Source: Rudaea sp.
GTDB taxonomy: Bacteria; Pseudomonadota; Gammaproteobacteria; Xanthomonadales; Rhodanobacteraceae
Assembly (NCBI GenBank): GCA_050737915.1
Contig: JBOHYL010000019.1
Coordinates: 6,927 to 70,926, forward strand
DNA: 64,000 nucleotides
Direction: 5' to 3'
Positions within the stretch are counted from its first letter, which is position 1; every line of letters starts with the position of its first letter. Shown in pieces: positions 52,074 through 64,000 of the stretch. Both the position numbers and the translations under genes were made by a program. Under the pieces are notes generated by a model. The model searched no databases. It saw nothing but the letters and a program-made list of their open reading frames with translations, and was not told the origin of the DNA.

Positions 52074-53804
52074 TCAGGCGGGACTCTCCAGCCGCGCATC
52101 CGCATCGTCGTTGGCTGCCGGCACTGCATCAACCGCCTCGTCGGCAGTATCAGGCGCCACCATTTCCACGCGGAAATAGCCGCCCCCGTTGTCGCTGCAA
52201 CGCACACCGCGCAGGGACTCGATGGAAGGTTCCACCGGCCAGCTGAACGGATCGCCGGGCCGAGTCAACTCGATTTCGCCGCTGTCGCGGTCGAACAACG
52301 CCGGCACCACGATCACCGGCGTGCCGCCATTCGGGTCTTGCAACGCCAGCGCGCGCATCGCTGCGCGAGGCACGCCGTTGCTATCGAAACTGCGTACCGC
52401 CGCCGGCTGTGCCCGCCGTGCCAGCAATTCCACGCCGGCCTGCATGCTGCCATCGCCCTCGATCCGCAACCAGCGGATCGCGCCGATCATCCAGTCGCGC
52501 GATTCATCGTCGTCGGCCGGCGGCGCCAGACCGAGCAACTCGCCGACTTTCACGCGGATTCCATCAATACTGTCCCAAGCGAGCCGATAGCCGCCAAGAC
52601 TCTGGTCGAGCACGCGCGCCGGGATGCGGCGGATGCGTGGCCCTGCACTCGCATTTGTCCATGCGGCAGCGCGGTCGCTCTCGTGAAGGGTGATCGCCAC
52701 ACCGCGGGTCTTGACCAGAAACCCCTCGAAATCCATGCCTCCCGCCAACACGTAATGCAAATCGTGCAGGCCTATCACCGATTCGAGCATATGCCCTGCG
52801 GACAAGCGTTGCTGGACGCGATCACTGGCCACATCCCACACTCGCAGCAAGCGCGCAACGAAATCGATTGCCACCTTGATCGACGCGCCGCGCGCGCCGA
52901 ATTCGGTCGCCGTGGTACCCGGCGCCAGCAAGGCCAGATGGCCTTCCAGAAAACGCACCAACCCGCTGATTTCCAGTGCCCACAGGCCGGCGTCCGGCGT
53001 TTCGCGTTCTTCCGGCAAATAGCCAAGACTGCGATCGGAGTCAGTGCGGATGGCGATGGCGCCTGCAGGCGCGCGCCCTTCGCGCAGCTCGCAATGCGAG
53101 GCCCACAAGCCGGTCAACTGATAAATGTCGCTGTTCTCGCGCTGAGTGAAACGGTACGGATTCGACAGTGCGAACAGCAATGCATGGATGTAGGCCAGAC
53201 GCACGTTCGTCTGGCCAGCGCCACGCAGCGATTCGATCACGGGTTTTTCGTCAACGCCGACGGCAACCGCGAAACGGAACAGGTCGTGCAGGTTCTGCCA
53301 CGCGCCTGGCGGCGGCGCGCGGTAGCCAAGGTACGCCTGGTACAGAAAGCCGCCGCGATAGCCAAGCGCACGCACCAGCGCCAGCGCGGCTGCCTTTCCG
53401 CGCAGGAATGGTACCGCGCCGGCGGGAGCGCACATATCGTGCACCGCTGCGCAATAACCCAATGCAAGCTCGTGTTCGAAATCCTGCGCGAGCTGGCCGA
53501 GCTGCCGCTTCTGTGGCGGCAGCGGAAAACTTTCGGCGATTACCTGTCTGCCAAGCGAGGAGACGATCGTACCTACTGGCTCGCGCAGCATTTCCAGCGC
53601 ATCGATGCGCTGTTGCGGATCGATACGCAGCTGATTCATCTCGCGCAATGCGACGATCAGCAGGCGTGAGGTAGCCGCGGGATTGGCCAGTGGCAGTTGT
53701 CCCAGCCACTGGCGTAACGATTTCGCGTCGGTAGCGAACGAATTGCGGCGTGGAACATGCCGCTCGGGCAGTCCCTCAGCCAATCGTTCGAACAACGAAC
53801 TCAT
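52074..53804 (-). CDS. large hypothetical protein with a C-terminal PilZ-like motif (RRIPAR..DQSLGG)
   Basis: A clean 576-aa ORF with G+C-rich third positions like its neighbours. I recognise no enzymatic motifs. The motif is at codons 390-405 (nt 52590-52637). Confidence 0.55.
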   Translation of the reverse strand: MSSLFERLAEGLPERHVPRRNSFATDAKSLRQWLGQLPLANPAATSRLLIVALREMNQLRIDPQQRIDALEMLREPVGTIVSSLGRQVIAESFPLPPQKRQLGQLAQDFEHELALGYCAAVHDMCAPAGAVPFLRGKAAALALVRALGYRGGFLYQAYLGYRAPPPGAWQNLHDLFRFAVAVGVDEKPVIESLRGAGQTNVRLAYIHALLFALSNPYRFTQRENSDIYQLTGLWASHCELREGRAPAGAIAIRTDSDRSLGYLPEERETPDAGLWALEISGLVRFLEGHLALLAPGTTATEFGARGASIKVAIDFVARLLRVWDVASDRVQQRLSAGHMLESVIGLHDLHYVLAGGMDFEGFLVKTRGVAITLHESDRAAAWTNASAGPRIRRIPARVLDQSLGGYRLAWDSIDGIRVKVGELLGLAPPADDDESRDWMIGAIRWLRIEGDGSMQAGVELLARRAQPAAVRSFDSNGVPRAAMRALALQDPNGGTPVIVVPALFDRDSGEIELTRPGDPFSWPVEPSIESLRGVRCSDNGGGYFRVEMVAPDTADEAVDAVPAANDDADARLESPA

Positions 53805-53850: not shown

Positions 53851-55812
53851 TCAGGCGCCCCGCAATGCCCGTGTCAGCACGCGCCGTAAAATGCGCTCGG
53901 CAACGCCTCGCGGCCGGGCCAGGCCCATGCGCGCAAGCAGCGGCTCGTCCTGTGCACGTGGCGATCCTCGCCAAAGCGCTCCGACGCTGAAAGCGGCCAG
54001 GCGCGGCCTGCTCGTCGCCAGCGCCTGCAAGCGCTGCAACGCCGGCAGCAATGCCAATTCCACCGCGTCGAAATCGCTGCCGAAGGGAAACCGCGGAAAC
54101 CGATCGCGCTGGGGCGCCAGCGCAGCCGCCAGTCGCTCCGGAGTGTTGCGCCGCCACGCTGCCGGCAATACAAAATTCCGATGCAGTTTGCCGCTGGCTT
54201 TCGCCTGCGTCGCCAGTTCGTCGACGCAGCGCGCATCAGCGATCGCGAGCATGGCGACAATGCATTCTTCGTCGGATTTGCCGCGCAGGTCGGCGATGCC
54301 ATATTCGGTGATGTAGATATCGCGCAGATGGCGCGGAATCGTGACCTGACCGTAGTTCCAGCGAATGTTCGAGTGCAATTTGCCGCCGCTGCGCCGGGTG
54401 CTGCGCAACAGCAGGATCGAACGTCCGCCGGCGAGCGCATGCGCCATCGCCACGAAGTTGTACTGGCCGCCGACGCCGCTGACAACCTGGCCGTCTTCGA
54501 GCGTATCGGAAACGGCCGCACCGAGCAGGGTCGCCATCATGCAGGTGTTGAAAAATCGCGCGTCGCGGTGCTGAAGGGCATTCAGCGTCGCGTGCTCGCC
54601 GTAGAGTTGGTTGATGTCCGACACGCGCGTCATCGACAGCCCGTCGAAATCTGCGCCGCGCAGATCGCGCAACCATGTGTAGAAATCTTTCGAACCCAGA
54701 TAGAACGCACCGCGCAGGTAGCGCCCATCGCTGCGCCGCGAAACATCCACGCTGCGGCCCAGCGCCAGAGCTTTTTCGACGTCAAGATCGTCGAACACGC
54801 GGCGTTTGAGAATTCCCGCACGCGCCAAATGCATGAATCCGTCCATCACCATTTCACTGGCGCCATACACGCCGTGCGCGAACGGATCGAGCCCACCGCA
54901 ATTGTCGGGGCCACTGGCATGGCCAAGCGCCATCAGTGCCGCGCGATAGTCTGCGTTATGCACATGCCGCAGCAAAAGTGCATGTACCAACGCGTCGGAC
55001 AGTACGCCGATACCGATCTGCAAGGTGCCGCCATCGCGCACCAGGCTACTGGCGTGCAGCCCGAGCGCGTATTCGGCGATATCGACTTGGGCGCGCGGCA
55101 GCGCAAATAGCGTGTGCGCGGAAGCCGGATCGTCCAGCACAATGTCGAAGAATGCTGCGTCCGTTTCTGCTTCGTTGCCGATGTACGGCAAGTCCGGGTG
55201 AATCACGCCGACTACCAGCGGTCGCGGCGCACCGATCGCAGCCATGCGCTCGAGCAGATCCGCGCTAACATCCGGATTGCAGGCCAGGCTGTAACGCCGT
55301 TGCGCGCCCTGCCCGCGTGCCGCAATCAACTGCGCGACCGCGTTGATGCCAATGCCGGCCAGATCGCGCGCCACATGCGTATAGTTGAGGCTGGCGTAGT
55401 CGCGCTGCGATTGTGCCACGCCGAGCATCGCACCGGATTGCAGATAAAACTCGTGCACACGGATATTGGCCGGCAGCGCATTCGCATGCTGTGCCGCGAC
55501 CCAGGCCAGATCAGGGTAGTCCTTGCCGAAATTCCGTTCGAGAAACGGCGCGAGAAAGCGCCGTTCCAGATCACTCTTCGGTGTGGGCCGCGCCAGCGAC
55601 AAGGCGGTATAGATATCCAGCTTCAGCGCCGGATCGCGCGCCGCCTGCGCATAGATCGCGTTGAGCAGCACGTTCGGCTTGCCCAACCCCAGCGGCGTGG
55701 CCAGACGCAGGGTCCCGCGCGCATGCGCGAGGATGCGCGCCAGGCAGGTGGAGGTGTCGCTGAGCAGTTCCGGCATGTCGCCATCATCGCAGATCGTGCC
55801 GGATACTTGCAC
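53851..55812 (-). CDS. acetyl-CoA hydrolase/transferase family protein
   Basis: 653 aa. It has ATPLGLGKPN...IYTALSL in the N-terminal part and GQVVSGVGGQYNFVAMAH in the C-terminal part. These are typical of the acetyl-CoA hydrolase/4-hydroxybutyrate CoA-transferase superfamily. The start may be ATG 55776 (MPELL...). Confidence 0.8.
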   Translation of the reverse strand: MQVSGTICDDGDMPELLSDTSTCLARILAHARGTLRLATPLGLGKPNVLLNAIYAQAARDPALKLDIYTALSLARPTPKSDLERRFLAPFLERNFGKDYPDLAWVAAQHANALPANIRVHEFYLQSGAMLGVAQSQRDYASLNYTHVARDLAGIGINAVAQLIAARGQGAQRRYSLACNPDVSADLLERMAAIGAPRPLVVGVIHPDLPYIGNEAETDAAFFDIVLDDPASAHTLFALPRAQVDIAEYALGLHASSLVRDGGTLQIGIGVLSDALVHALLLRHVHNADYRAALMALGHASGPDNCGGLDPFAHGVYGASEMVMDGFMHLARAGILKRRVFDDLDVEKALALGRSVDVSRRSDGRYLRGAFYLGSKDFYTWLRDLRGADFDGLSMTRVSDINQLYGEHATLNALQHRDARFFNTCMMATLLGAAVSDTLEDGQVVSGVGGQYNFVAMAHALAGGRSILLLRSTRRSGGKLHSNIRWNYGQVTIPRHLRDIYITEYGIADLRGKSDEECIVAMLAIADARCVDELATQAKASGKLHRNFVLPAAWRRNTPERLAAALAPQRDRFPRFPFGSDFDAVELALLPALQRLQALATSRPRLAAFSVGALWRGSPRAQDEPLLARMGLARPRGVAERILRRVLTRALRGA

Positions 55813-55854: not shown

Positions 55855-58266
55855 ATGACCGAACGTTTCAAGCTCGCCATCGTCGGTTCCGGGCCGGGCG
55901 GGCTATCGGCCGCCGCGCGTGCGGCCGAGCGCGGCGAATCGCATGTGCTGCTCGAAGCCGAAGCACATCTGTCGAACACGATCTTCCGCTACCAAAAGGG
56001 CAAGTTCGTGATGGACGAGCCGGGCATCCTGCCACTGCGTGCGCCGGTGCCGTTCAAGGCCGGCTCGCGCGAAACGATTCTGGATGCCTGGGACGAAGCG
56101 GCCAAGCGCCTGAAGATCAACACTCGCTACAAGCACGAAGTCCGCGCGATCAAGGCCAGCCCGGGCGGCGGCTTCGAGATCCAATGCACGAATGGCCAGA
56201 GCCTCGCCGCCGAGCGCGTGGTGATGGGGATCGGCTTGCAGGGCAATATCCGCAAACTCGGCTGCCCCGGCGAAGATCTGCCATTGGTGCAGTACCAGCT
56301 GGACGACCCGGACGAATACGAAGGCGAAACCATCGCCGTGGTCGGCGCCGGCGATGCCGCCATCGAAAACGCGGTGGCGCTGGCGAAACAAAACAACGTC
56401 GTCATCGTCAATCGCAAGGACGAATTCGCGCGCGCCAAAAAAGGCAATGAGTCGGCGATTCTGAAGGCGATCGAGGATGGCACCATTGAGTGCTATTACG
56501 ACTCCGCGCCCGAGCGCGTGGATGCGCTCAGCGTCGGCCGCAAGAAAGGCCGACTTATCCTCAGCACGAAAAATGGCAAGGCACAGATCCTGCTCGACCG
56601 CGTGATCGCGCGCCTCGGCGCCACCGCGCCGCGCGGTTTTGTCGAAGCCTGCGGTGTGGTGTTTCCGAACAAGGACCCGGCCGCGGTGCCGGCGATCAGC
56701 TCGCAATACGAATCCAACGTCAAGGGCCTGTACATTGTCGGCGCGCTCGGCGGCTATCCGCTGATCAAGCAGGCGATGAATCAGGGCTACGAGGTCGTCG
56801 AATACATCCTCGGCAACAAAGTCGAGCCTGCCGACGAGCCGTTGCTCAAGGCCAAGTTTGCGGCGATGCCCGGCTTCCGCAACGTCGACGAGGCGTTGGC
56901 GTGCGTGCAGAAGAACGTGCGTCTGCTCGCCCACATCACGCCGTTGCAATTACGCGAGTTCATGCTCGATTCGGACATCCGCACGCCCAAGCCGGGCGAG
57001 ACGATCTTCGCGCGCAATGATTACACGAATACGTTTTTCAGCATCGTCGAAGGCGAAGTGCAGGTCGTGATTGACGCGGCCACGAACCAGCGCATCAGCC
57101 TCAAACGCGGCGAATTTTTCGGCGAGATGAGTCTGATCTCCGGGCGCCGACGCTCGGCCACAATCCTTGCCGGATCGAACTGCGTGCTGATCGAGACACC
57201 GCGGCGCTCGATGAACCGCCTGATCAACTCGGTTGAGGCGGTCAAGCGCGAGATCGATCAGGTGTTCATCCTGCGTGCGATCCAGTCGCGTTTTGCGCCC
57301 GAGGCTTCGGCCGAACAACTCGCCGAAGTCGTTTCGGCTTCGCGTCTGGAGCGTTTCAAGGCCGGCGACGTGCTGTTCAACGAGGGCGAAATCGGCGACT
57401 GCCTGCATCTGGTGCGCGTGGGCTCGCTGACCATCTCGCGCAACATCGGTGGCAAGGATGTGGTGCTCAGCTACGTGCCGGCGGGCAATTACGTCGGCGA
57501 GATGGCGCTGATGGGAGAATCGCGGCGCTCGGCCACAGCACGCGCGGCGATCGCCACCGAAACGGTGCGCCTGGATGGCGACAGTTTCAAGAAACTGGTC
57601 AACCGCATTCCGGTGCTGCGCCTGCGCCTGCAATCCGAATATCGCCAGCGCACGGCGGCGAATCTGGCGATGCAGTCTATGCCGGGGGGCGGCGACATCA
57701 TCTCGTTCCTGCTTGCCCAAGGCGCCGGCGAAGCCACGGATATCCTGTTGATTGACGAATCGCTGTGCGTGCGTTGCGACAATTGCGAGAAAGCCTGCGC
57801 CGAAACCCACGGCGGCACCTCGCGGCTGGACCGCGAAGCCGGCCCAACCTTCGCCAACGTGCACGTGCCGACCTCATGCCGGCATTGCGAGCATCCGCAC
57901 TGTATGAAGGATTGCCCGCCTGACGCGATCCACCGCGCGCCCAATGGTGAGGTGTTCATCGCCGACAACTGCATCGGTTGCGGCAACTGCGAGCGCAACT
58001 GTCCGTATGGCGTAATCCACATGGCCTACAAGCCACCGAAGAAACCCGGTCTGATCCAATGGCTGCTGTTCGGTCGCGGCGACGGCCCCGGCGAAGCGCC
58101 GCACGATCCGCACGACCATGCTGCAGGCGAGGTCAAGAAGGCGGTCAAGTGCGACATGTGCAAGGATCTTTCCGGTGGCCCGGCCTGTGTGCGCTCGTGT
58201 CCGACCGGTGCGGCGATCCGCATCTCGCCTGAGGAGTTTCCCGCCTACGCGCAGTCGCGGCGCTGA
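55855..58266 (+). CDS. multidomain redox protein: FAD/NAD(P) pyridine-nucleotide oxidoreductase + 2 cyclic-nucleotide-binding domains + 4x[4Fe-4S] ferredoxin module
   Basis: The real start is MTERFKLAIVGSGPGGLSAAA (ATG 55855, GGGAGGG upstream). The track ORF from 55114 is a 5' extension. Dinucleotide folds are IVGSGPGG and VVGAGDAA. The cNMP phosphate-binding cassettes are FGEMSLISGRRRSAT (57118-57162) and VGEMALMGESRRSAT (57493-57537). Cys clusters are CVRCDNCEKAC, CRHCEHPHCMKDCP, CIGCGNCERNCP and CDMCKD...CVRSCP (57766-58203). Confidence 0.85.
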   Translation: MTERFKLAIVGSGPGGLSAAARAAERGESHVLLEAEAHLSNTIFRYQKGKFVMDEPGILPLRAPVPFKAGSRETILDAWDEAAKRLKINTRYKHEVRAIKASPGGGFEIQCTNGQSLAAERVVMGIGLQGNIRKLGCPGEDLPLVQYQLDDPDEYEGETIAVVGAGDAAIENAVALAKQNNVVIVNRKDEFARAKKGNESAILKAIEDGTIECYYDSAPERVDALSVGRKKGRLILSTKNGKAQILLDRVIARLGATAPRGFVEACGVVFPNKDPAAVPAISSQYESNVKGLYIVGALGGYPLIKQAMNQGYEVVEYILGNKVEPADEPLLKAKFAAMPGFRNVDEALACVQKNVRLLAHITPLQLREFMLDSDIRTPKPGETIFARNDYTNTFFSIVEGEVQVVIDAATNQRISLKRGEFFGEMSLISGRRRSATILAGSNCVLIETPRRSMNRLINSVEAVKREIDQVFILRAIQSRFAPEASAEQLAEVVSASRLERFKAGDVLFNEGEIGDCLHLVRVGSLTISRNIGGKDVVLSYVPAGNYVGEMALMGESRRSATARAAIATETVRLDGDSFKKLVNRIPVLRLRLQSEYRQRTAANLAMQSMPGGGDIISFLLAQGAGEATDILLIDESLCVRCDNCEKACAETHGGTSRLDREAGPTFANVHVPTSCRHCEHPHCMKDCPPDAIHRAPNGEVFIADNCIGCGNCERNCPYGVIHMAYKPPKKPGLIQWLLFGRGDGPGEAPHDPHDHAAGEVKKAVKCDMCKDLSGGPACVRSCPTGAAIRISPEEFPAYAQSRR

Positions 58267-58275
58267 CGGCCAGCC

Positions 58276-59172
58276 ATGCACGATTCCATTCTTACCCACG
58301 CCAAATCGCGCTATTTGTGGACTGCGCTGGCGCTCTCGCTCGCGTCGCTGGTCGCCTACATCGTCCACGATCCGGGCGGCCCGCCCAACGGCGGCACCTG
58401 GCTGGGCTACACGCTCGGCACGATCGGTGCGCTGCTGATCGTGTGGCTGATGCTGTTCGGCATGCGCAAGCGCCGCTACCGCGACAGTGCCGGCACGCTG
58501 CGCGGTTGGTTGTCCGCGCACATCTACCTTGGCACCTCGCTCATCCTGATCGTACTGCTGCACAGCGGTTTCCAGTTCGGCTGGAACGTGCACACATTGG
58601 CGTTCGTGCTCATGCTGGTGGTGATCTTCTCCGGATTTTTCGGCGTCTACGTGTATCTGCGCTATCCGAACCTGATGACACGCAACCGCGAAAGCGCGAC
58701 GCGCGATGCCATGCTCGAGGAAGTCGCTGAAATCGACCAGAATGCACTCGCGCTGGCCGACGGCATCGACCCGAAAATCCACGCCATCGTGCTGCGCTCG
58801 ATCCAGAACACGCGGCTGGGCGGCGGCGTATGGACGCAATTGCGCGCGCACGACGGCTCGGATCTGGCGCTGGAGTCGTTGCACCGGAACATTGCCGAAC
58901 GCGAAAACAAGCAGGAAATGAAAACCTCCGAAATGCCGACCATGTTCGCGATGGTCGATTTTCTCGCCGGCCGCGCTACCGACAAACAGGGCGAGGCGCT
59001 GCGCAAGCTGATCGACCTGATCTCACGCAAGAAGGGACTGGCGACGAAAGTCGCGCGCGACATGCAATATCAGGCGATGATGGAAATCTGGCTGTATATC
59101 CACGTGCCGCTATCGTTCGCTTTGCTGGCGGCGCTGATCGCGCACATCGTTTCTTCTTTCTTCTATTGGTAG
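58276..59172 (+). CDS. integral membrane protein, 5 predicted TM helices with conserved-looking histidines (possible b-type haem carrier)
   Basis: 298 aa. Hydrophobic segments are WTALALSLASLVAYIV, LGYTLGTIGALLIVWLMLFG, LSAHIYLGTSLILIVLLHSGF, VHTLAFVLMLVVIFSGFFGVYVYL and IWLYIHVPLSFALLAALIAHIVSSFFY. A charged loop of about 110 aa precedes the last helix. It starts 9 nt after the upstream stop. Confidence 0.7.
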   Translation: MHDSILTHAKSRYLWTALALSLASLVAYIVHDPGGPPNGGTWLGYTLGTIGALLIVWLMLFGMRKRRYRDSAGTLRGWLSAHIYLGTSLILIVLLHSGFQFGWNVHTLAFVLMLVVIFSGFFGVYVYLRYPNLMTRNRESATRDAMLEEVAEIDQNALALADGIDPKIHAIVLRSIQNTRLGGGVWTQLRAHDGSDLALESLHRNIAERENKQEMKTSEMPTMFAMVDFLAGRATDKQGEALRKLIDLISRKKGLATKVARDMQYQAMMEIWLYIHVPLSFALLAALIAHIVSSFFYW

Positions 59173-59179
59173 GTCGAGA

Positions 59180-60859
59180 ATGCGCTGGCTGATCCGCCGA
59201 GTGCTGAAAAAAGGCAAGGGCGCCATTTCCTACGAGGAAGACGTCCATTACGGCGACGTGCTCACCATCGGGCGCGCTGCCGATCAGGCGATCTTTCTGC
59301 CCGACATGCGCGCCGCACTCAACCACGCGCGCATCACTCTGCTTTCCGGCGGCCAGTACAAGATCGAATCACTGATCCTGGCCGGCATCCGCGTTGATGG
59401 CCAGATCACCTACACCACGACCGCGGGTGCCGGAGCTGCGGTGGAAATCGGCAATACGCGCCTGACCCTCCTCGCCGCGCCGCAGGACTACGACGGCGCC
59501 GTGGAAGTAAGCACACTCGACAAGTCCGAGCAGCAAGCCGAGCTGGCGCGCGCGGCGAAACCCACGCGACTGGCCCAGACCGGGCTGAGCAAACGCCGGC
59601 CGGCGTGGATCCTGTTCTTTGGAATTCTTTTGTTCTGCCTCGCCCTGCCGATGCTCGGCCACTTCATTCCGGGATTCGGCCATATGCTGCGGAGCGTGCC
59701 GCTGCTGCCGAGTACGCAAAGCTGGAACCCCGGCCCGCTTGACGCCGCGCACCGTTTCTTCGCCAGCGACTGCACGAAGTGTCACCAGCACGCCTTTCTG
59801 ACCGTGCGCGACGATGCCTGCCTGGTCTGTCACGTCAACACCGCCGCGCACGCGGACCCTGCCAAGTTCAATCTTCCGCAATTGGGCAACGCGCAGTGCC
59901 GCAGTTGCCATCAGGATCACCAGGGGCCGAGTGGCATGATCCGCACCGACCAACGCCTGTGTGCGGATTGCCATGCCGACCTGAAGGCACGCACCAAGGG
60001 CGTCAGCACCTTCGCCGACGTCAGCGATTTCGGCACGGCGCATCCGCAGTTCAAGGTCAGCCTGCCCGGCTGGGACGCCGCCGGCAACTTCGCCCCGCAG
60101 CGCGTGACCTGGGCCGCCGACCTGAAGGAAAATTCCGGGCTCAAGTTCAACCACGAAAAGCACCTGAAACCCGATGGGCTGAACACCCCGAACGGTCACC
60201 GCGTGCTCACCTGTGCGACGTGCCACACGCCCGATGCCGGCGGCGCGAAGATGCGTCCGATTCAGTTCAAGAACATGTGCCACGACTGCCACAAGCTCGG
60301 CTTCGACACGCTCGCACCCGGGCGCGAAGTGCCGCACGGCAAGGTCGCCGCAGTCGCGTATACGTTGAGCGAGTATTACGCCAAGGTGGCGCTGGAAGGC
60401 GGCTATCTGGATGCACGCTCGCCCGACATCGTGCAGCAGCGGCGCCGCCCCGGCGCGCCGCCACTGTCACAACAGCAGCAGCAGGAAGCACTCGCCTGGG
60501 CACGCCAGCGCGCGCGCGAGGCCACCGACAGCCTGTTCACCGGCAAGGCGTGCAGTACGTGCCACAAGGTCACGCCGCCGCGCACCGACGACGACACCTG
60601 GCATGTGGCACCGGTACGCGTGTCTGGCGTGTGGTACGCGGACGCGAAATTTACCCACGCCAAGCACACCACGATCCAGTGCAAGGATTGCCACGACGGC
60701 GCGCCGAAGTCCACGCAATCGGCCGATCTGCTCATTCCCGGCATCGCCAACTGCCGAACTTGCCACGCTGGCGCCAAGGCGAAGGATAAGGTCGCCACGA
60801 CCTGCATCGCCTGCCACGCGTACCATCAATCGGCGACGCTGAAGATGGGTACATTATGA
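59180..60859 (+). CDS. FHA-like domain / single TM / decahaem c-type cytochrome
   Basis: 559 aa. The N-terminus ...GDVLTIGRAADQAIFLPDMRAALNHARITLLSGGQYKIESL..AGIRVDGQ follows the FHA pattern (GR...D..L.D......H..I). The TM helix is PAWILFFGILLFCLALPMLGHF. Ten CXXCH motifs follow: CTKCH, CLVCH, CRSCH, CADCH, CATCH, CHDCH, CSTCH, CKDCH, CRTCH and CIACH (nt 59771-60817). It starts 7 nt after the upstream stop. Confidence 0.85.
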   Translation: MRWLIRRVLKKGKGAISYEEDVHYGDVLTIGRAADQAIFLPDMRAALNHARITLLSGGQYKIESLILAGIRVDGQITYTTTAGAGAAVEIGNTRLTLLAAPQDYDGAVEVSTLDKSEQQAELARAAKPTRLAQTGLSKRRPAWILFFGILLFCLALPMLGHFIPGFGHMLRSVPLLPSTQSWNPGPLDAAHRFFASDCTKCHQHAFLTVRDDACLVCHVNTAAHADPAKFNLPQLGNAQCRSCHQDHQGPSGMIRTDQRLCADCHADLKARTKGVSTFADVSDFGTAHPQFKVSLPGWDAAGNFAPQRVTWAADLKENSGLKFNHEKHLKPDGLNTPNGHRVLTCATCHTPDAGGAKMRPIQFKNMCHDCHKLGFDTLAPGREVPHGKVAAVAYTLSEYYAKVALEGGYLDARSPDIVQQRRRPGAPPLSQQQQQEALAWARQRAREATDSLFTGKACSTCHKVTPPRTDDDTWHVAPVRVSGVWYADAKFTHAKHTTIQCKDCHDGAPKSTQSADLLIPGIANCRTCHAGAKAKDKVATTCIACHAYHQSATLKMGTL

Positions 60860-60955
60860 GCCCCGCCTTGCGCTATGATCGGGTCACGGGGGATCGGGCA
60901 ATGCCGGCGTAAGCGACCGCGTCGGCGCAGAGTGCCGCAATCGGGGAGAGGAGCG

Positions 60956-62950
60956 ATGCGGAACAAACGGCATGTCTGGCTGGCACTGGCGACGGCATTG
61001 ACGCTTGCCGCGTGTGGCGGCGGCAGCAATTCCGGCGATCCGGAAGGCACCGCTCCGCCGCCGCAATCCACGCCGGATTCGGGCTGCAACGGTTCATGCG
61101 CCAATGCGCAGACGTACCTGACACAGAGCGACGTGCAGACCGTGATCGCGCAGGCGGCGGCCGAAGCGCAAGCGCAAGGCAAACCCGCGGTGATCGCCGT
61201 GGTCGACCGTGTCGGCAATGTGCTTGCGGTCTATCGCATGACCGGCGCGCCAGACACCATGACAATTACCTCTGACCGCGGCGTGGTCGGCGGACTGGAA
61301 GGCCTTGCCGTTCCGAGCGAGCTGGCCGCGATCGCCAAGGCCGTGACCGGCGCGTATCTGTCCTCCGAAGGCAACGCGTTTTCTACCCGCACGGCCAGCC
61401 AGATCGTGCAGGAACACTTCAATCCGGGCGTGCTCGGCACACCGGCCGGCCCGCTGTTCGGCGTGCAGTTTTCACAACTGCCTTGCTCGGATTTGGCCAC
61501 GCATTTTTCTGCAGGAACCGGAGCAGGCCCTCATAACTCACCGCTCGGCTTGTCCGCCGATCCGGGCGGCTTCCCCTTGTATGAAAACGGAACGCCGGTC
61601 GGTGGCGTCGGTGTCGCCGCTGACGGCATCTACGGCCTCGATCCGAATGTGATGGACAAGGACCGCAATATCGACGAGCTGATCGCCATGGCCGCCACCT
61701 ACGGTTTCGGTGCGCCCACCGACCGCCGCGCGGATACGATCACGGCCGGTGGTATCACCTTGCGCTTCAGCGATGTCGATTACGCCGACTTGGCCACGCA
61801 TCCGCAAAACGCGCCGCCGTATCCCACTTTGACCGGCGCACTGATGACGGCGCCCGGCTATTTCGACGGCAGTGCGATTCTGGCCGGAACCGCATTCGGC
61901 CAGACCGATTCCGGCATACGTGCGGACACGCAGTTCTACTCGGGTCTGGATGCGTTCGTGCTCGACGACGGTCATGGCAACAACCGCTATCCACCCAGGG
62001 CAGGTACCGACGGCGCCGATGCACTGACCGCCGACGAAGCGCAGATTCTCGTGCAACAGGCGCTGATGGTGGCCAATCACGCACGCGCACAGATTCGTAA
62101 TCCGCTCGGCAGTCAGGCGCGCGTGTCTGTTTCGATTGTGGATACCAACGGCGTCGCCCTTGCGGTCGCACGCACGCGCGACGCGCCGATCTTCGGCACC
62201 GACGTGTCGCTGCAGAAGGCGCGCACGGCGGCATTCAATTCCGGCAGCTATGCGGCCGGCGTGCTGCAGGGTCTGGCACCAGCCAACTATTTCGCCGACA
62301 GCATCGACGTCGCCAACAAGAAAGTCATCTTCACTACGGTCGCGCAAAGCAATATCGGCGATTACGTGGCTGCGGTGCGCGCCTTCCTCGGCCTGCCCGA
62401 CGCGCTCGAGGGCGGTTACGCGTTCACCGACCGTGCCGGCGGCAACCTGTCGCGCCCGTTCTTTCCGGACGGTGTGGATGGCAACCCGAACGGACCGTTC
62501 AGCCATCTGTTGGCGCAATGGAGCCCGTTCCAGGAAGGCTTGCAACTCGATCTTGTCTACAACGCGGTCGCACTGAATCTGGTCGGCTATCTGCAAGCCG
62601 AAGGCTTTGCGATCAGTGCCGACAACGTGCCCGCCGCGACGCAATTCTGCACGGCCAGTCCGCGCCTTGCCAACGGCATACAAGTGTTCCCCGGCAGCGC
62701 GCCGATCTATCGCGGCAGCAAACTGGTTGGCGGCATCGGTGCCTCCGGCGATGGCGTGGACCAGGACGACATGGTCAGTTTTCTCGGCCTGTACAACGCC
62801 GGCGTCGCACTCGGCGGCGCAATCGGCAATGCGCCGCCGGCGATACGCGCCGACAATCTGGCGCCGCAGGGCGTACATCTGCGCTATGTCGAATGTCCCC
62901 AGGCACCGTTCCTGGACAGCAACGCCGACAATGTTTGCGATGGGAAGTGA
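60956..62950 (+). CDS. lipoprotein with two GlcG/DUF336 (HbpS-like, haem-binding/degrading family) domains
   Basis: The real start is MRNKRHVWLALATALTLAAC (lipobox LAAC; ATG 60956, GGGGAGAGGAG upstream). Domain 1 is LTQSDVQTVIAQAAAEAQAQGKPAVIAVVDRVGNVLAVYRM...GGFPLYENGTPVGGVGVAADG. Domain 2 is LTADEAQILVQQALMVANHAR...VSVSIVDTNGVALAVARTRDAPIFGTDVSLQKARTAA...IYRGSKLVGGIGASGDGVDQDD. The track ORF from 60875 is a 5' extension. Confidence 0.75.
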   Translation: MRNKRHVWLALATALTLAACGGGSNSGDPEGTAPPPQSTPDSGCNGSCANAQTYLTQSDVQTVIAQAAAEAQAQGKPAVIAVVDRVGNVLAVYRMTGAPDTMTITSDRGVVGGLEGLAVPSELAAIAKAVTGAYLSSEGNAFSTRTASQIVQEHFNPGVLGTPAGPLFGVQFSQLPCSDLATHFSAGTGAGPHNSPLGLSADPGGFPLYENGTPVGGVGVAADGIYGLDPNVMDKDRNIDELIAMAATYGFGAPTDRRADTITAGGITLRFSDVDYADLATHPQNAPPYPTLTGALMTAPGYFDGSAILAGTAFGQTDSGIRADTQFYSGLDAFVLDDGHGNNRYPPRAGTDGADALTADEAQILVQQALMVANHARAQIRNPLGSQARVSVSIVDTNGVALAVARTRDAPIFGTDVSLQKARTAAFNSGSYAAGVLQGLAPANYFADSIDVANKKVIFTTVAQSNIGDYVAAVRAFLGLPDALEGGYAFTDRAGGNLSRPFFPDGVDGNPNGPFSHLLAQWSPFQEGLQLDLVYNAVALNLVGYLQAEGFAISADNVPAATQFCTASPRLANGIQVFPGSAPIYRGSKLVGGIGASGDGVDQDDMVSFLGLYNAGVALGGAIGNAPPAIRADNLAPQGVHLRYVECPQAPFLDSNADNVCDGK

Positions 62951-62951
62951 C

Positions 62952-64000
62952 ATGAGTATTCGACTTCGCTCGCGCATCCTCCCCGCCGGCATCGCGCTTG
63001 CCGGGATTGCTGCATTTTCTATAAGTCCACAAATACACGCGCAAACAGCCAGCACCATGCCGCATGTGTTGGAACTGTTCGGCGTGCTGCCGGCACCAAC
63101 CTACGATCCGTCCAAATCCGAAATACCGCGGCGTCGCCCGGGGCATCCGTACGAACCACTGCCGGAATTCAAGGTGATCAATCCCGATGGCGTGCCGCCC
63201 GCGCCGGTGGATCAGGCCGGGGCGTTCCTGCCGGTGCCGGATCGCTGGCGCATCATGGAAACCCTGGGTTTCAAGTTTCCGTGGTACGACCCGTACAACC
63301 AGAATATCTACAAAGGCGACAAGCCGATCGACGGCAAGGATCATTTCCTCGTCCTGACCGGCATCTCCGACACCTTTATCGAGCCGCGCAGCGTGCCCAC
63401 ACCGGTCGCGCCGCAGAATACCGGGCATGCCGGCGAATTGGGCGTGTTCGGTGGCATCAATCAACTGCTGCTCGCGCAGAACTTCATCGCCAGCGTGGAT
63501 TATTACCACGGCGATACCACATTCAAGCCGCCCGACACCGAATACAAGGCGACGCTCGCGTTCAACTACAACCGCGTCAACGTGCGCGAAGTGCGTGCCC
63601 TGCAGATTGACCCGCGACTTGGCACCAGCCGCGACGATGGCTTCATCGGCGTGCAGGAACTATGGTTCGACAAGCATCTGCGCGACATCGATTCACGCTA
63701 CGATTTCGACAGCTTGCGCATCGGCATCCAGCCATTCTCGACCGATTTCCGCGGTTTCCTGTTCCAGGATTCGCAACCGGGTATCCGCCTGTTCGGCGAC
63801 CGTGACAACAACCGCTGGCAGTACAACTTTGCGTATTTCCGGCGCCTGGAAAAAGATGTCAATTCCGGTTTGAACGACGTGACCCGCGCACCGCGCCACG
63901 ACGATGTCCTCGTTGCCAACCTGTATCGCCAGGATTGGCCGTGGCTGGGCTATACCTCGCAGGCGACAATCGTCTACAACCACAATGACGACAGCACGAT
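62952..64000 (+). CDS. secreted protein of unknown function (signal peptide; possibly outer-membrane); truncated by the window end
   Basis: Absent from the ORF track because it has no stop. My translation from ATG 62952, 1 nt after the upstream TGA, gives MSIRLRSRILPAGIALAGIAAFSISPQIHAQTAST...PDRWRIMETLGFKFPWYDPYNQNIYKGDKPIDGKDHFLVLTGISDTFIEPR...RWQYNFAYFRRLEKDVNSGLND... The frame is open through position 64000. Confidence 0.6.
   Translation, partial: MSIRLRSRILPAGIALAGIAAFSISPQIHAQTASTMPHVLELFGVLPAPTYDPSKSEIPRRRPGHPYEPLPEFKVINPDGVPPAPVDQAGAFLPVPDRWRIMETLGFKFPWYDPYNQNIYKGDKPIDGKDHFLVLTGISDTFIEPRSVPTPVAPQNTGHAGELGVFGGINQLLLAQNFIASVDYYHGDTTFKPPDTEYKATLAFNYNRVNVREVRALQIDPRLGTSRDDGFIGVQELWFDKHLRDIDSRYDFDSLRIGIQPFSTDFRGFLFQDSQPGIRLFGDRDNNRWQYNFAYFRRLEKDVNSGLNDVTRAPRHDDVLVANLYRQDWPWLGYTSQATIVYNHNDDST

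Follow-up and report, generated by a model that had tools for sequence, protein, structure and literature searches.

A widely conserved gene cluster of Rudaea sp. that may encode a cyclic-nucleotide-gated route for electron export from NADPH to multihaem cytochromes of the cell envelope

Genes at the locus

The distal end of a 64,000-nucleotide (nt) stretch of Rudaea sp. DNA (GenBank assembly GCA_050737915.1, contig JBOHYL010000019.1, positions 6,927 to 70,926), referred to here in its full length as the window, is occupied by a redox gene cluster of which five genes, g1 to g5, fall within window positions 55855-64000 (Table 1). They encode, in order, a cytoplasmic protein with flavin, cyclic nucleotide monophosphate (cNMP)-binding and iron-sulfur domains; an inner-membrane protein with five transmembrane (TM) helices; a decahaem cytochrome held by one TM helix behind a forkhead-associated (FHA)-like head; a lipoprotein with tandem HbpS/GlcG domains; and a protein with a signal peptide, whose gene is interrupted by the window edge. 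A sixth gene, g6, follows in relatives, and the window thus carries the first five of six to seven conserved genes. The cluster is real and widely conserved, and we consider it probable, with confidence somewhat above even, that its products export electrons from NADPH to a periplasmic or surface haem module under the control of a cyclic nucleotide, bypassing the quinone route.

The table of open reading frames (ORFs) and their translations bore out the layout proposed earlier in a reading of the sequence alone (the sequence-only reading), with five + strand genes, intergenic gaps of 9, 7, 96 and 1 nt, and divergence from a − strand neighbour that turns out to be an acetyl-CoA hydrolase/transferase gene; every domain that this reading had named was recovered with Pfam and NCBIfam profile searches. 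The nearest relatives of the cluster proteins belong to metagenome-assembled genomes (MAGs) and isolates of Rudaea, Dokdonella and Tahibacter.

Table 1. Coordinates of the cluster genes, their domains, neighbouring genes and features of related loci (aa, amino acid residues)
Feature	Sequence	Coordinates	Strand	Description
g1	window	55855-58266	+	803 aa; cytoplasmic; flavoprotein with two cNMP-binding domains and four [4Fe-4S] motifs
FAD/NAD(P)H domain of g1	window	55855-56844	+	aa 1-330; thioredoxin-reductase type
Tandem cNMP-binding domains of g1	window	56977-57654	+	aa ~375-600
Polyferredoxin of g1	window	57742-58224	+	aa ~630-790; HycB/NrfC type; four Cys motifs
g2	window	58276-59172	+	298 aa; inner membrane; 5 TM helices
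g3	window	59180-60859	+	559 aa; FHA-like head, one TM helix, ten haem motifs
FHA-like domain of g3	window	59180-59494	+	aa 1-105; cytoplasmic; degenerate
TM anchor of g3	window	59606-59674	+	aa 143-165; hydrophobic stretch WILFFGILLFCLALPMLGHF; position conserved
Decahaem domain of g3	window	59747-60856	+	aa 190-559; periplasmic; 10 CXXCH
g3-g4 spacer	window	60860-60955	+	96 nt; strong ribosome-binding site (GGAGAGGAG) 5' of g4
g4	window	60956-62950	+	664-aa lipoprotein; tandem HbpS/GlcG
g5	window	62952 to past 64000	+	first 349 of ~609 aa; gene cut by window end
N-terminal extension of g5	window	~63063-63330	+	corresponds to aa 38-127 of homologue P0329
Acetyl-CoA hydrolase/transferase gene	window	53851-55812	−	divergent from g1
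Gene of 576-aa protein	window	52074-53804	−	homologues divergently adjoin g1 in many loci
Tetrahaem gene	L141	4141-5490
Tetrahaem gene	L120	3893-5020
Tetrahaem gene	L128	3681-5099
Tetrahaem gene	L154	20217 onward
Tetrahaem gene	L155	20283 onward
Tetrahaem gene	L156	6150-7466
Region of the closest relative	L152	12298-16300		locus L152 has 90.8% nt identity to window 55855-64000
Divergent g4-g6 block	L046	12326-20101		40-46% identity
Genes in place of g1	L100	1-4400
Genes in place of g1	L102	1-2050
Stand-alone FHA protein	L155	6763-7389		208 aa; FHA and Yop-YscD_cpl
Ser/Thr kinase	L128	2251-3567	−	Pkinase, E 6.5e-54
Four ccmF/G/H/I-like genes	L133	644-5101		directly upstream

Conservation and linkage of the cluster

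The possibility of a chance arrangement was judged by conservation of gene content. Synteny within the Lysobacterales was discounted, because ispG, the gene of a 576-aa protein and the acetyl-CoA hydrolase gene are syntenic there too, and distant metagenomic loci were therefore used, 80 metagenomic loci being gathered via the g2 family. Of the loci with room to show the neighbour, 94 of 95 have g1 before g2; g4 comes after g3 in 21 of 24 loci classed as distant, and among those that are very distant in 12 of 14. The order g1-g6 is retained (L120, L125, L128, L131-L133, L141, L144-L146) at 45-50% identity of g2 and 33-37% identity of g3, where the synteny with ispG and acetyl-CoA hydrolase is gone; these loci belong to gamma- and alphaproteobacterial MAGs, in which the genes are annotated merely as 'hypothetical protein'. 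The cultured Kineobactrum salinum, whose genome is complete, has seven genes with gaps of 2, 4, −4, 5, 9 and −19 nt, the overlap of 4 nt being that of g3 with g4, and L155 and L156 are arranged likewise.

Co-occurrence of the families beyond this genome is thus established, and since the order is conserved in distant loci where housekeeping synteny has been lost, g4 and g5 belong to the cluster, settling the doubt that the 96-nt gap before g4 had raised in the sequence-only reading. No terminator-like hairpin was found in that spacer; promoter and terminator scans gave counts no better than in shuffled sequence, and an Rfam scan gave nothing credible. The best-conserved proteins of the cluster are g1 and g6. 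A protein of 1110 aa (P0244) is an in-frame fusion of g1 and g2; a second apparent fusion, in L141, was dismissed as a spurious out-of-frame ORF extension.

The g4-g6 genes shift as a block: four loci (L021, L044, L053 and L056) lack it within 10 kb, three (L038, L039 and L042) have it at another position, and L045 has it in inverted orientation. In L100 and L102 a small protein with a TetR-like N-terminus and a 328-aa protein replace g1, which suggests that the input module can sit elsewhere or be exchanged.

Upstream of the cluster, homologues of the 576-aa protein (35-78% identity) divergently adjoin g1 in many loci, also in loci without the acetyl-CoA hydrolase gene (L050, L052, L084, L097, L105 and L110), and are not present in the most distant ones. 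This protein had no Pfam match, and a guess that it is PilZ-like was dropped for that reason; its position could reflect synteny at the level of a clade, or it could be an accessory or regulatory partner. The remaining genes of the window, judged by their N-terminal sequences, are presumably housekeeping genes (apparent pnp, infB, nusA, uvrA, dnaK/J and ispG).

The flavin, cyclic-nucleotide and iron-sulfur protein g1

The g1 protein, which has neither a signal peptide nor a TM helix, begins with a domain matching Pyr_redox_3 (E 7.5e-29), Pyr_redox_2 and a YpdA-like family (E 3.9e-31), with a match in the PDB to ferredoxin-NADP reductase (3ab1). Its two Rossmann motifs, GSGPGG and GAGDAA, are kept in a set of 18 diverse homologues, to which the statements on g1 conservation below also refer. 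Residues 1-330 contain no CxxC disulphide and no conserved Cys pair; the absence of the redox-active CxxC rules out a thioredoxin reductase (TrxR) proper and fits the TrxR-type ferredoxin-NADP reductases or YpdA. A conserved stretch, VNRKDEFARAK, resembles the HRRxxxR motif, which we take to be the NADPH-binding motif of TrxR, and by this resemblance NADPH is probably the preferred nucleotide.

The cNMP_binding family (PF00027) matches two consecutive stretches of g1 (E 5.8e-36), and comparison with the PDB shows a tandem layout of cyclic-nucleotide-binding (CNB) domains like that of PKA-R and PKG. Because both phosphate-binding cassettes (FFGEMSLISGRRRSAT and YVGEMALMGESRRSAT) are intact and are kept in the homologues, gating of g1 by a cyclic nucleotide is plausible. 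The C-terminal part matches Fer4_6, Fer4_9, Fer4_11 and Fer4_7, its best PDB match being HycB (E 1e-15), followed by HycB3/4, and all 16 Cys residues of its four iron-sulfur motifs, which are of the CxxCxxCxxxC(P) type, are invariant, in agreement with the view that g1 is a cytoplasmic NAD(P)H/FAD module wired to four iron-sulfur clusters.

The membrane protein g2, a putative dihaem-b relay

As had been expected of a 5-TM protein with histidines inside its helices, an AlphaFold2 model of g2 (predicted local distance difference test score, pLDDT, 85) has five TM helices, with a cytoplasmic helical insert at residues ~129-265, and four TM histidines are invariant in 31 diverse members of the family: His82 and His96 on TM3, and His276 and His290 on TM5, 14 residues apart in each pair. 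By the positive-inside rule, His82 and His276 would lie towards the cytoplasmic face of the membrane and His96 and His290 towards the periplasmic face, which would be the classical geometry of two stacked bis-His haems b. Beside His82, at the cytoplasmic end, Lys65, Arg66, Trp78 and Ser80 are also invariant. These features make g2 a candidate dihaem-b relay across the membrane.

A search of 1.84 billion representatives returned 2770 clusters at 50% identity with E<=1e-3 and 251 with E<=1e-30, nearly all of 270-310 aa, so that g2 appears from sequence to stand for a large and previously unnamed family. Two assignments to known families were tried and rejected. Ferric_reduct (PF01794) matches g2 homologues weakly (3 of 31, best E 1e-3), and a ferric-reductase-like protein (NOX, MsrQ) was rejected on this weak profile match, five TM helices rather than six, and an hhalign probability of 0.3% for the g2 family with E. 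coli MsrQ; only the spacing of the His pairs resembles that family. A b561/CybB protein was rejected with an hhalign probability of 0.2% for CybB and a score for Ni_hydr_CYTB (PF01292) below the gathering threshold, a match that is sub-threshold in 26 of the 31 members. Searches with the g2 profile found no match among PDB sequences.

The FHA-like head and decahaem wire of g3

The periplasmic part of g3 has exactly ten CXXCH motifs in all 19 diverse homologues, ten further conserved histidines outside the motifs (distal His) and no CXXCK, and it matches Cytochrome_C7 (E 3.6e-12). With ten motifs and ten distal histidines, all of its haems can be bis-His, leaving no open catalytic haem and pointing to a wire rather than an enzyme. 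The protein is therefore predicted to be a bis-His electron wire with ten haems, and its single TM helix, FHA-like head and lack of CXXCK are as the sequence-only reading had them.

The cytoplasmic head was identified as FHA (PF00498) with 22.1 bits against a cut-off of 20.7, and matches the FHA domain of GarA (E 3.6e-4). In alignment with the FHA domains of GarA and Rv1747 it keeps Gly31-Arg32 and His49, and has Ala46 in place of the Ser and Ala68 in place of the Asn of the phosphothreonine site; the Asn is absent from all 19 homologues and the Ser is present in only a few. One homologue has an unmarked FHA match together with a match to Yop-YscD_cpl, and FHA-like domains that are anchored in the membrane and independent of phosphorylation are known to serve structurally, as in YscD of the type III secretion system. 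Because the phosphothreonine-binding Ser and Asn are missing, the gating by phosphothreonine that had been proposed for g3 is unsupported, and a docking role is more likely for the head than that of a phosphothreonine reader. Thus, of the two types of signalling domain noted earlier in these electron carriers, the cNMP-binding domains have both cassettes intact and the FHA domain survives as a fold with a degenerate site.

Two genes of single distant loci bear on the subject of FHA domains. L155 has a stand-alone FHA protein directly upstream of g1, and L128 has a Ser/Thr kinase gene two genes upstream of g1 (Table 1). No conserved kinase, cyclase or two-component genes were found beside the cluster, and since the kinase occurs in L128 only, it does not rescue the idea of gating by phosphothreonine.

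The outer module, g4 to g6

The HbpS-like family (PF03928) matches g4 with 85.8 bits (cut-off 25). The match falls into two domains, residues ~54-240 and ~362-625, both of which are interrupted by an insertion; the PDB matches of g4 are HbpS, EfgA and the C-terminal domain of PduO. With its lipobox (LTLAAC, Cys20) g4 answers to the description of a lipoprotein built of two haem-binding-family domains, and the Gly at position +2 suggests sorting to the outer membrane.

The g5 product has a signal peptide; the part in the window had no Pfam match, and no relative was found by sequence in the PDB. It was modelled with AlphaFold2 on a full-length homologue (P0329, 84% identical). The model, of modest confidence (pLDDT 57), shows approximately 18 long strands in residues 131-607 after an N-terminal extension of ~125 aa, and Foldseek retrieved AlgE as its best match (E 3e-14, probability 1.0, TM-scores 0.36-0.49), the other matches being outer-membrane porins only. 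Alginate_exp Pfam matches are weak (7 of 22 g5 members), and the homologues end in ...ILTY, their last residue being aromatic as in AlgE-like barrels. The g5 protein is thus modelled as an 18-strand AlgE-like outer-membrane beta-barrel; the signal peptide assigned to it earlier stands, and the label of a secreted partner gives way to that of a barrel. Its N-terminal extension is unusually conserved and modelled with low confidence, with invariant stretches that include RRRPGH and P-x-P-DRWRIME-LG; a role as a plug, or as an arm that binds g4 or g6, is possible.

In relatives, g6 begins 10-100 nt after g5, and it follows g5 in every locus long enough to show it. In L006, which is 85% identical, a g5 of 609 aa is followed after 10 nt by a secreted g6 of 1270 aa (1240-1340 aa in relatives), in which ten CXXCH motifs occupy ~780 aa and an LVIVD beta-propeller forms the C-terminus. 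The spacing of the haem motifs is fixed across lineages, and 15 extra histidines are conserved. A profile of g6 found no relative in the PDB, and identification as ExtM/HmcA was rejected, as the NCBIfam scores were far below cut-off (HmcA 22 bits against 400) and covered only a c7-type haem pair. The earlier statement that no catalytic terminal oxidoreductase is present does not hold, since g6 follows g5 in relatives: the apparent lack of a terminal component is an artefact of the window edge, which cuts the cluster. The closest relative of the window's cluster region, L152, has g1-g5 intact, with only in-frame gaps relative to the window.

A Cytochrome_C554-type tetrahaem gene of ~375-470 aa lies before g1 or overlaps the end of g6 in at least 16 loci (13 found by tblastn and three, L154-L156, fetched later; examples in Table 1); within the flanks that were fetched, it was not found near the cluster in the window or in Rudaea, Dokdonella and Tahibacter loci. 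A much more divergent g4-g6 block in L046 adjoins ordinary g2 and g3 (74% and 63% identity), g1 being matched partly (60%), and hints at distinct subtypes of the outer module. Directly upstream in L133 are four genes that look like ccmF/G/H/I, judged by N-terminal sequence and size.

Proposed route of electrons

Laid out by topology, motifs and the g5 barrel, the products form a spatial series from cytoplasm through inner membrane and periplasm to outer membrane, as had been suggested, and the distant gene order, the P0244 fusion, the His pattern of g2 and the bis-His haems of g3 support a single electron-transfer chain. In the mechanism that we favour, g1 would oxidise NAD(P)H, likely NADPH, at its TrxR-type FAD domain and pass electrons from FAD through its four [4Fe-4S] clusters. 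It would dock onto the cytoplasmic faces of g2 and g3, where the candidate sites are the helical insert in g2 and, in g3, the degenerate FHA-like head; the Lys65/Arg66/Trp78/Ser80 patch of g2 is a further candidate for docking and electron entry. Two stacked b-type haems of g2, one ligated by His82 and His276 near the cytoplasm and the other by His96 and His290 near the periplasm, would then carry electrons over the membrane to the periplasmic ten-haem bis-His wire of g3. At or in the outer membrane, the g4 lipoprotein, the g5 barrel and g6 would together serve as terminal reductase or distal acceptor, with the soluble tetrahaem protein as a shuttle where present.

The direction is favoured by energetics: outward flow would have both the redox span and the membrane potential behind it, whereas inward flow to NAD(P)+ would oppose both. 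The tandem CNB domains lie between the flavin and the iron-sulfur chain, and a cyclic nucleotide bound there may switch the flow; a built-in switch would be sensible because outward flow drains NADPH and membrane potential. The gated conduit proposed in the sequence-only reading is thus retained as an outward chain from NADPH with plausible gating by a cyclic nucleotide, and loses its phosphothreonine gate to the degenerate FHA domain.

Most carriers are aerobic heterotrophs (Rudaea, Dokdonella, Tahibacter and Halieaceae), which argues against classical anaerobic metal respiration and for regulated reduction at the surface or in the periplasm. A more specific version, which we offer tentatively, is a quinone-independent, cNMP-gated, 'bacterial NOX-like' system of mostly aerobic Proteobacteria, running from NADPH through a new dihaem-b family (g2) and g3 to g6, which would be a new class of decahaem/beta-propeller enzyme mounted at the outer membrane together with the g5 barrel and the g4 lipoprotein; that such a system serves regulated extracellular reduction (for instance of metals or humics) or the production of reactive oxygen species, rather than energy conservation, is a possibility of the same tentative kind.

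Several observations weigh against electron export by this route. For g2, comparison of the whole model with the PDB by Foldseek gave nothing significant (best E 0.27), Ni_hydr_CYTB scored 20.6 bits against a cut-off of 30.1 and covered the last helix only, and neither hhalign comparison yielded a relative. Physical contact of g1 with g2 has a single fusion protein to speak for it, and the direction of flow and the donor follow from thermodynamic reasoning and motif resemblance. A barrel of 18 strands is narrower than the 26-strand MtrB and may not house a cytochrome. Among close loci, ~13% have g1-g3 and no g4-g6 nearby, as is also the case for 3 of 24 distant loci, and the lineage of L100-L102 has g2-g6 without g1 nearby. 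Finally, the g6 region of L152 differs by ~80 indels, mostly of 1 nt, from the intact g6 of L006, L018 and L065, and is called as three fragments, with a PLD-like gene further on also split, so that in the nearest lineage g6 is either a decayed pseudogene or the subject of a local assembly problem.

Alternative explanations

An alternative that we regard as unlikely, though the best of those considered, is that g2 and g3 form a quinone-linked module, a quinol dehydrogenase or quinone reductase comparable to CymA/NapC, CbcL or NarI, to which g1 is auxiliary or regulatory. The layout of g3, a single TM helix with a periplasmic multihaem domain, is like that of NapC/NirT proteins, as the authors who described the Ferrigenium module discussed below also noted; dihaem cytochromes b whose His pairs sit on two helices, as those of g2 do, are typical quinone-reactive subunits; and in L100-L102 the cluster does without a neighbouring g1. 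However, g1 adjoins g2 in nearly every locus with room, is among the two best-conserved proteins and is in one instance fused to g2, a complete chain from NAD(P)H through FAD to four [4Fe-4S] clusters is hard to see as a mere regulator, and g2 has no similarity to known quinone-reactive b subunits.

Electrons might instead travel inward from the periplasmic or surface haems and arrive at g1, where they would reduce NAD(P)+ or serve as a report on redox conditions outside the cell; the CNB and FHA domains would then be signalling outputs. This option, raised in the sequence-only reading, is given little credence here, although it would account for the signalling-type domains embedded in the chain, for the match of g4 to HbpS, whose family includes the redox-stress sensor partner of the HbpS-SenS/SenR system, and for the presence of a related module in Fe(II) oxidisers. 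For plausible periplasmic donors, inward flow would be uphill to NAD(P)+ and against the membrane potential; and as for sensing, CNB domains receive ligands and are not outputs, g1-g5 contain no effector domain, the phosphothreonine site of g3 is degenerate, and the only kinase nearby is that of L128.

It is equally improbable that two independent systems happen to be neighbours, a self-contained g1-g3 redox module and an unrelated periplasmic or outer-membrane haem enzyme (g4-g6) with its own substrate channel, as could be read from the eight loci where the g4-g6 block is absent, displaced or inverted, from the Ferrigenium module, which adjoins nirK without g4-g6-like partners, and from ptd clusters, which by their authors' description join the inner module to a different pentahaem protein and porin; the adjacency of g3 and g4 is kept in distant and very distant loci that have lost other synteny, the K. 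salinum genes overlap or lie 2-9 nt apart through the g3/g4 junction, and the wire of g3 needs an acceptor, for which g6 is the sole conserved candidate.

Significance

To our knowledge, bacterial electron-export routes begin at the quinone pool, with CymA, ImcH, CbcL or NapC-type proteins. If electron export from NADPH by this cluster is true, a start at NADPH, a new dihaem-type family and a second-messenger switch of its own would make a different design principle, which could account for extracellular redox activities, so far without explanation, of aerobic bacteria from soil and the sea, and would supply a concrete hypothesis on ptd and NHC, the clusters flagged by two groups. Cultured strains, among them Dokdonella immobilis, Tahibacter spp., Kineobactrum salinum and Parahaliea spp., carry the cluster, which makes it accessible to direct experiment.

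Comparison with known systems

The inner module has been noticed earlier and never characterised. A ptdABCDEFG cluster has been described in several phyla (bioRxiv 10.1101/2023.11.21.568154), with an FAD/NAD(P) oxidoreductase (PtdC), a cNMP-binding and 4Fe-4S protein (PtdE), a 'ferric reductase-like' protein of the cytoplasmic membrane (PtdF), a decahaem cytochrome (PtdG), a porin (PtdB), a pentahaem/beta-sandwich protein (PtdA) and a tetrahaem protein (bioRxiv 10.1101/2023.11.21.568154). By described domain content, PtdC and PtdE together correspond to g1, PtdF to g2, PtdG to g3 and the porin to g5, and the c554-type tetrahaem protein of distant loci may correspond to PtdD. PtdC and PtdE are separate proteins, whereas g1 is one polypeptide; the outer module here has, in place of PtdA and PtdB, a lipoprotein of the HbpS-like kind, a barrel resembling AlgE and a decahaem protein with an LVIVD propeller, and the lineage of the window has no tetrahaem gene nearby.

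In Ferrigenium straubiae, an 'NHC' module consists of an FHA-TM-nonahaem cytochrome, a 5-TM protein in which no motif is recognised and a cytoplasmic [4Fe-4S] protein; its authors state that FHA-multihaem fusions had not previously been reported and propose flow from Fe(II) to quinone (bioRxiv 10.64898/2026.01.22.701106). The three-gene layout is the same as that of g1-g3, but the cytochrome has nine haems rather than ten, the description names neither a flavin nor a cNMP domain, nirK and SHP are the neighbours, and there is no g4-g6 module. For both the ptd and the NHC modules, independent authors drew the same cytoplasm-to-periplasm layout. A pangenome of the Gallionellaceae lists a ten-haem 'forkhead-associated protein' in 27 genomes, in one table line with no neighbourhood (mSystems 2023, PMC10734462).

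The two preprints temper any claim of complete novelty; the earlier statement that no characterised chain of this composition is known is qualified by the similar modules already described, none of them characterised. The present cluster is set apart from these by the fused flavo-cNMP/iron-sulfur protein, the distinct g4-g6 outer module, of which no description was found in the literature, and the lack of a tetrahaem gene.

Among characterised systems, MtrCAB, PioAB/MtoAB, Pcc/Ext and Uet resemble the cluster in having an outer-membrane beta-barrel beside decahaem cytochromes and a lipoprotein, and in their trans-envelope logic. They differ in that g5 has ~18 strands and is AlgE-like, compared with 26 strands for MtrB, and in that g6 is haem-sparse (ten in ~780 aa), ends in a beta-propeller and has no PDB relative. 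No match to the MtrA, MtrB or MtrC families exceeded its cut-off (OmcA/MtrC 16 bits against 209), and identification of the cluster as an Mtr/Pcc porin-cytochrome complex was rejected on this result and the size of the barrel. Moreover, known conduits draw on quinol dehydrogenases (CymA, ImcH, CbcL) and not on NAD(P)H-oxidising flavo-iron-sulfur proteins.

The Tmc and Hmc complexes of sulfate reducers likewise bring together a multihaem cytochrome c in the periplasm, a cytochrome b in the membrane and an iron-sulfur protein in the cytoplasm that connects the redox pools on the two sides, but the present cluster has no HdrD-like CCG protein and no NrfD subunit, and its input is a pyridine-nucleotide flavoprotein with CNB domains. 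The NOX/FRD proteins and the Fre-MsrQ-MsrP system share with the proposed route the passage of electrons from a cytoplasmic NAD(P)H flavoenzyme through two stacked bis-His haems b to an acceptor outside, with His pairs 13-14 residues apart on two helices, and eukaryotic NOX is, moreover, regulated; g2 is no member of that family and has five TM helices against six, and here an iron-sulfur chain is interposed and the acceptor is a multihaem c wire. As analogues of function, then, the nearest systems would appear to be the NOX/ferric reductases and Fre-MsrQ-MsrP, in shared logic though not in membership, together with Tmc/Hmc and the porin-cytochrome conduits.

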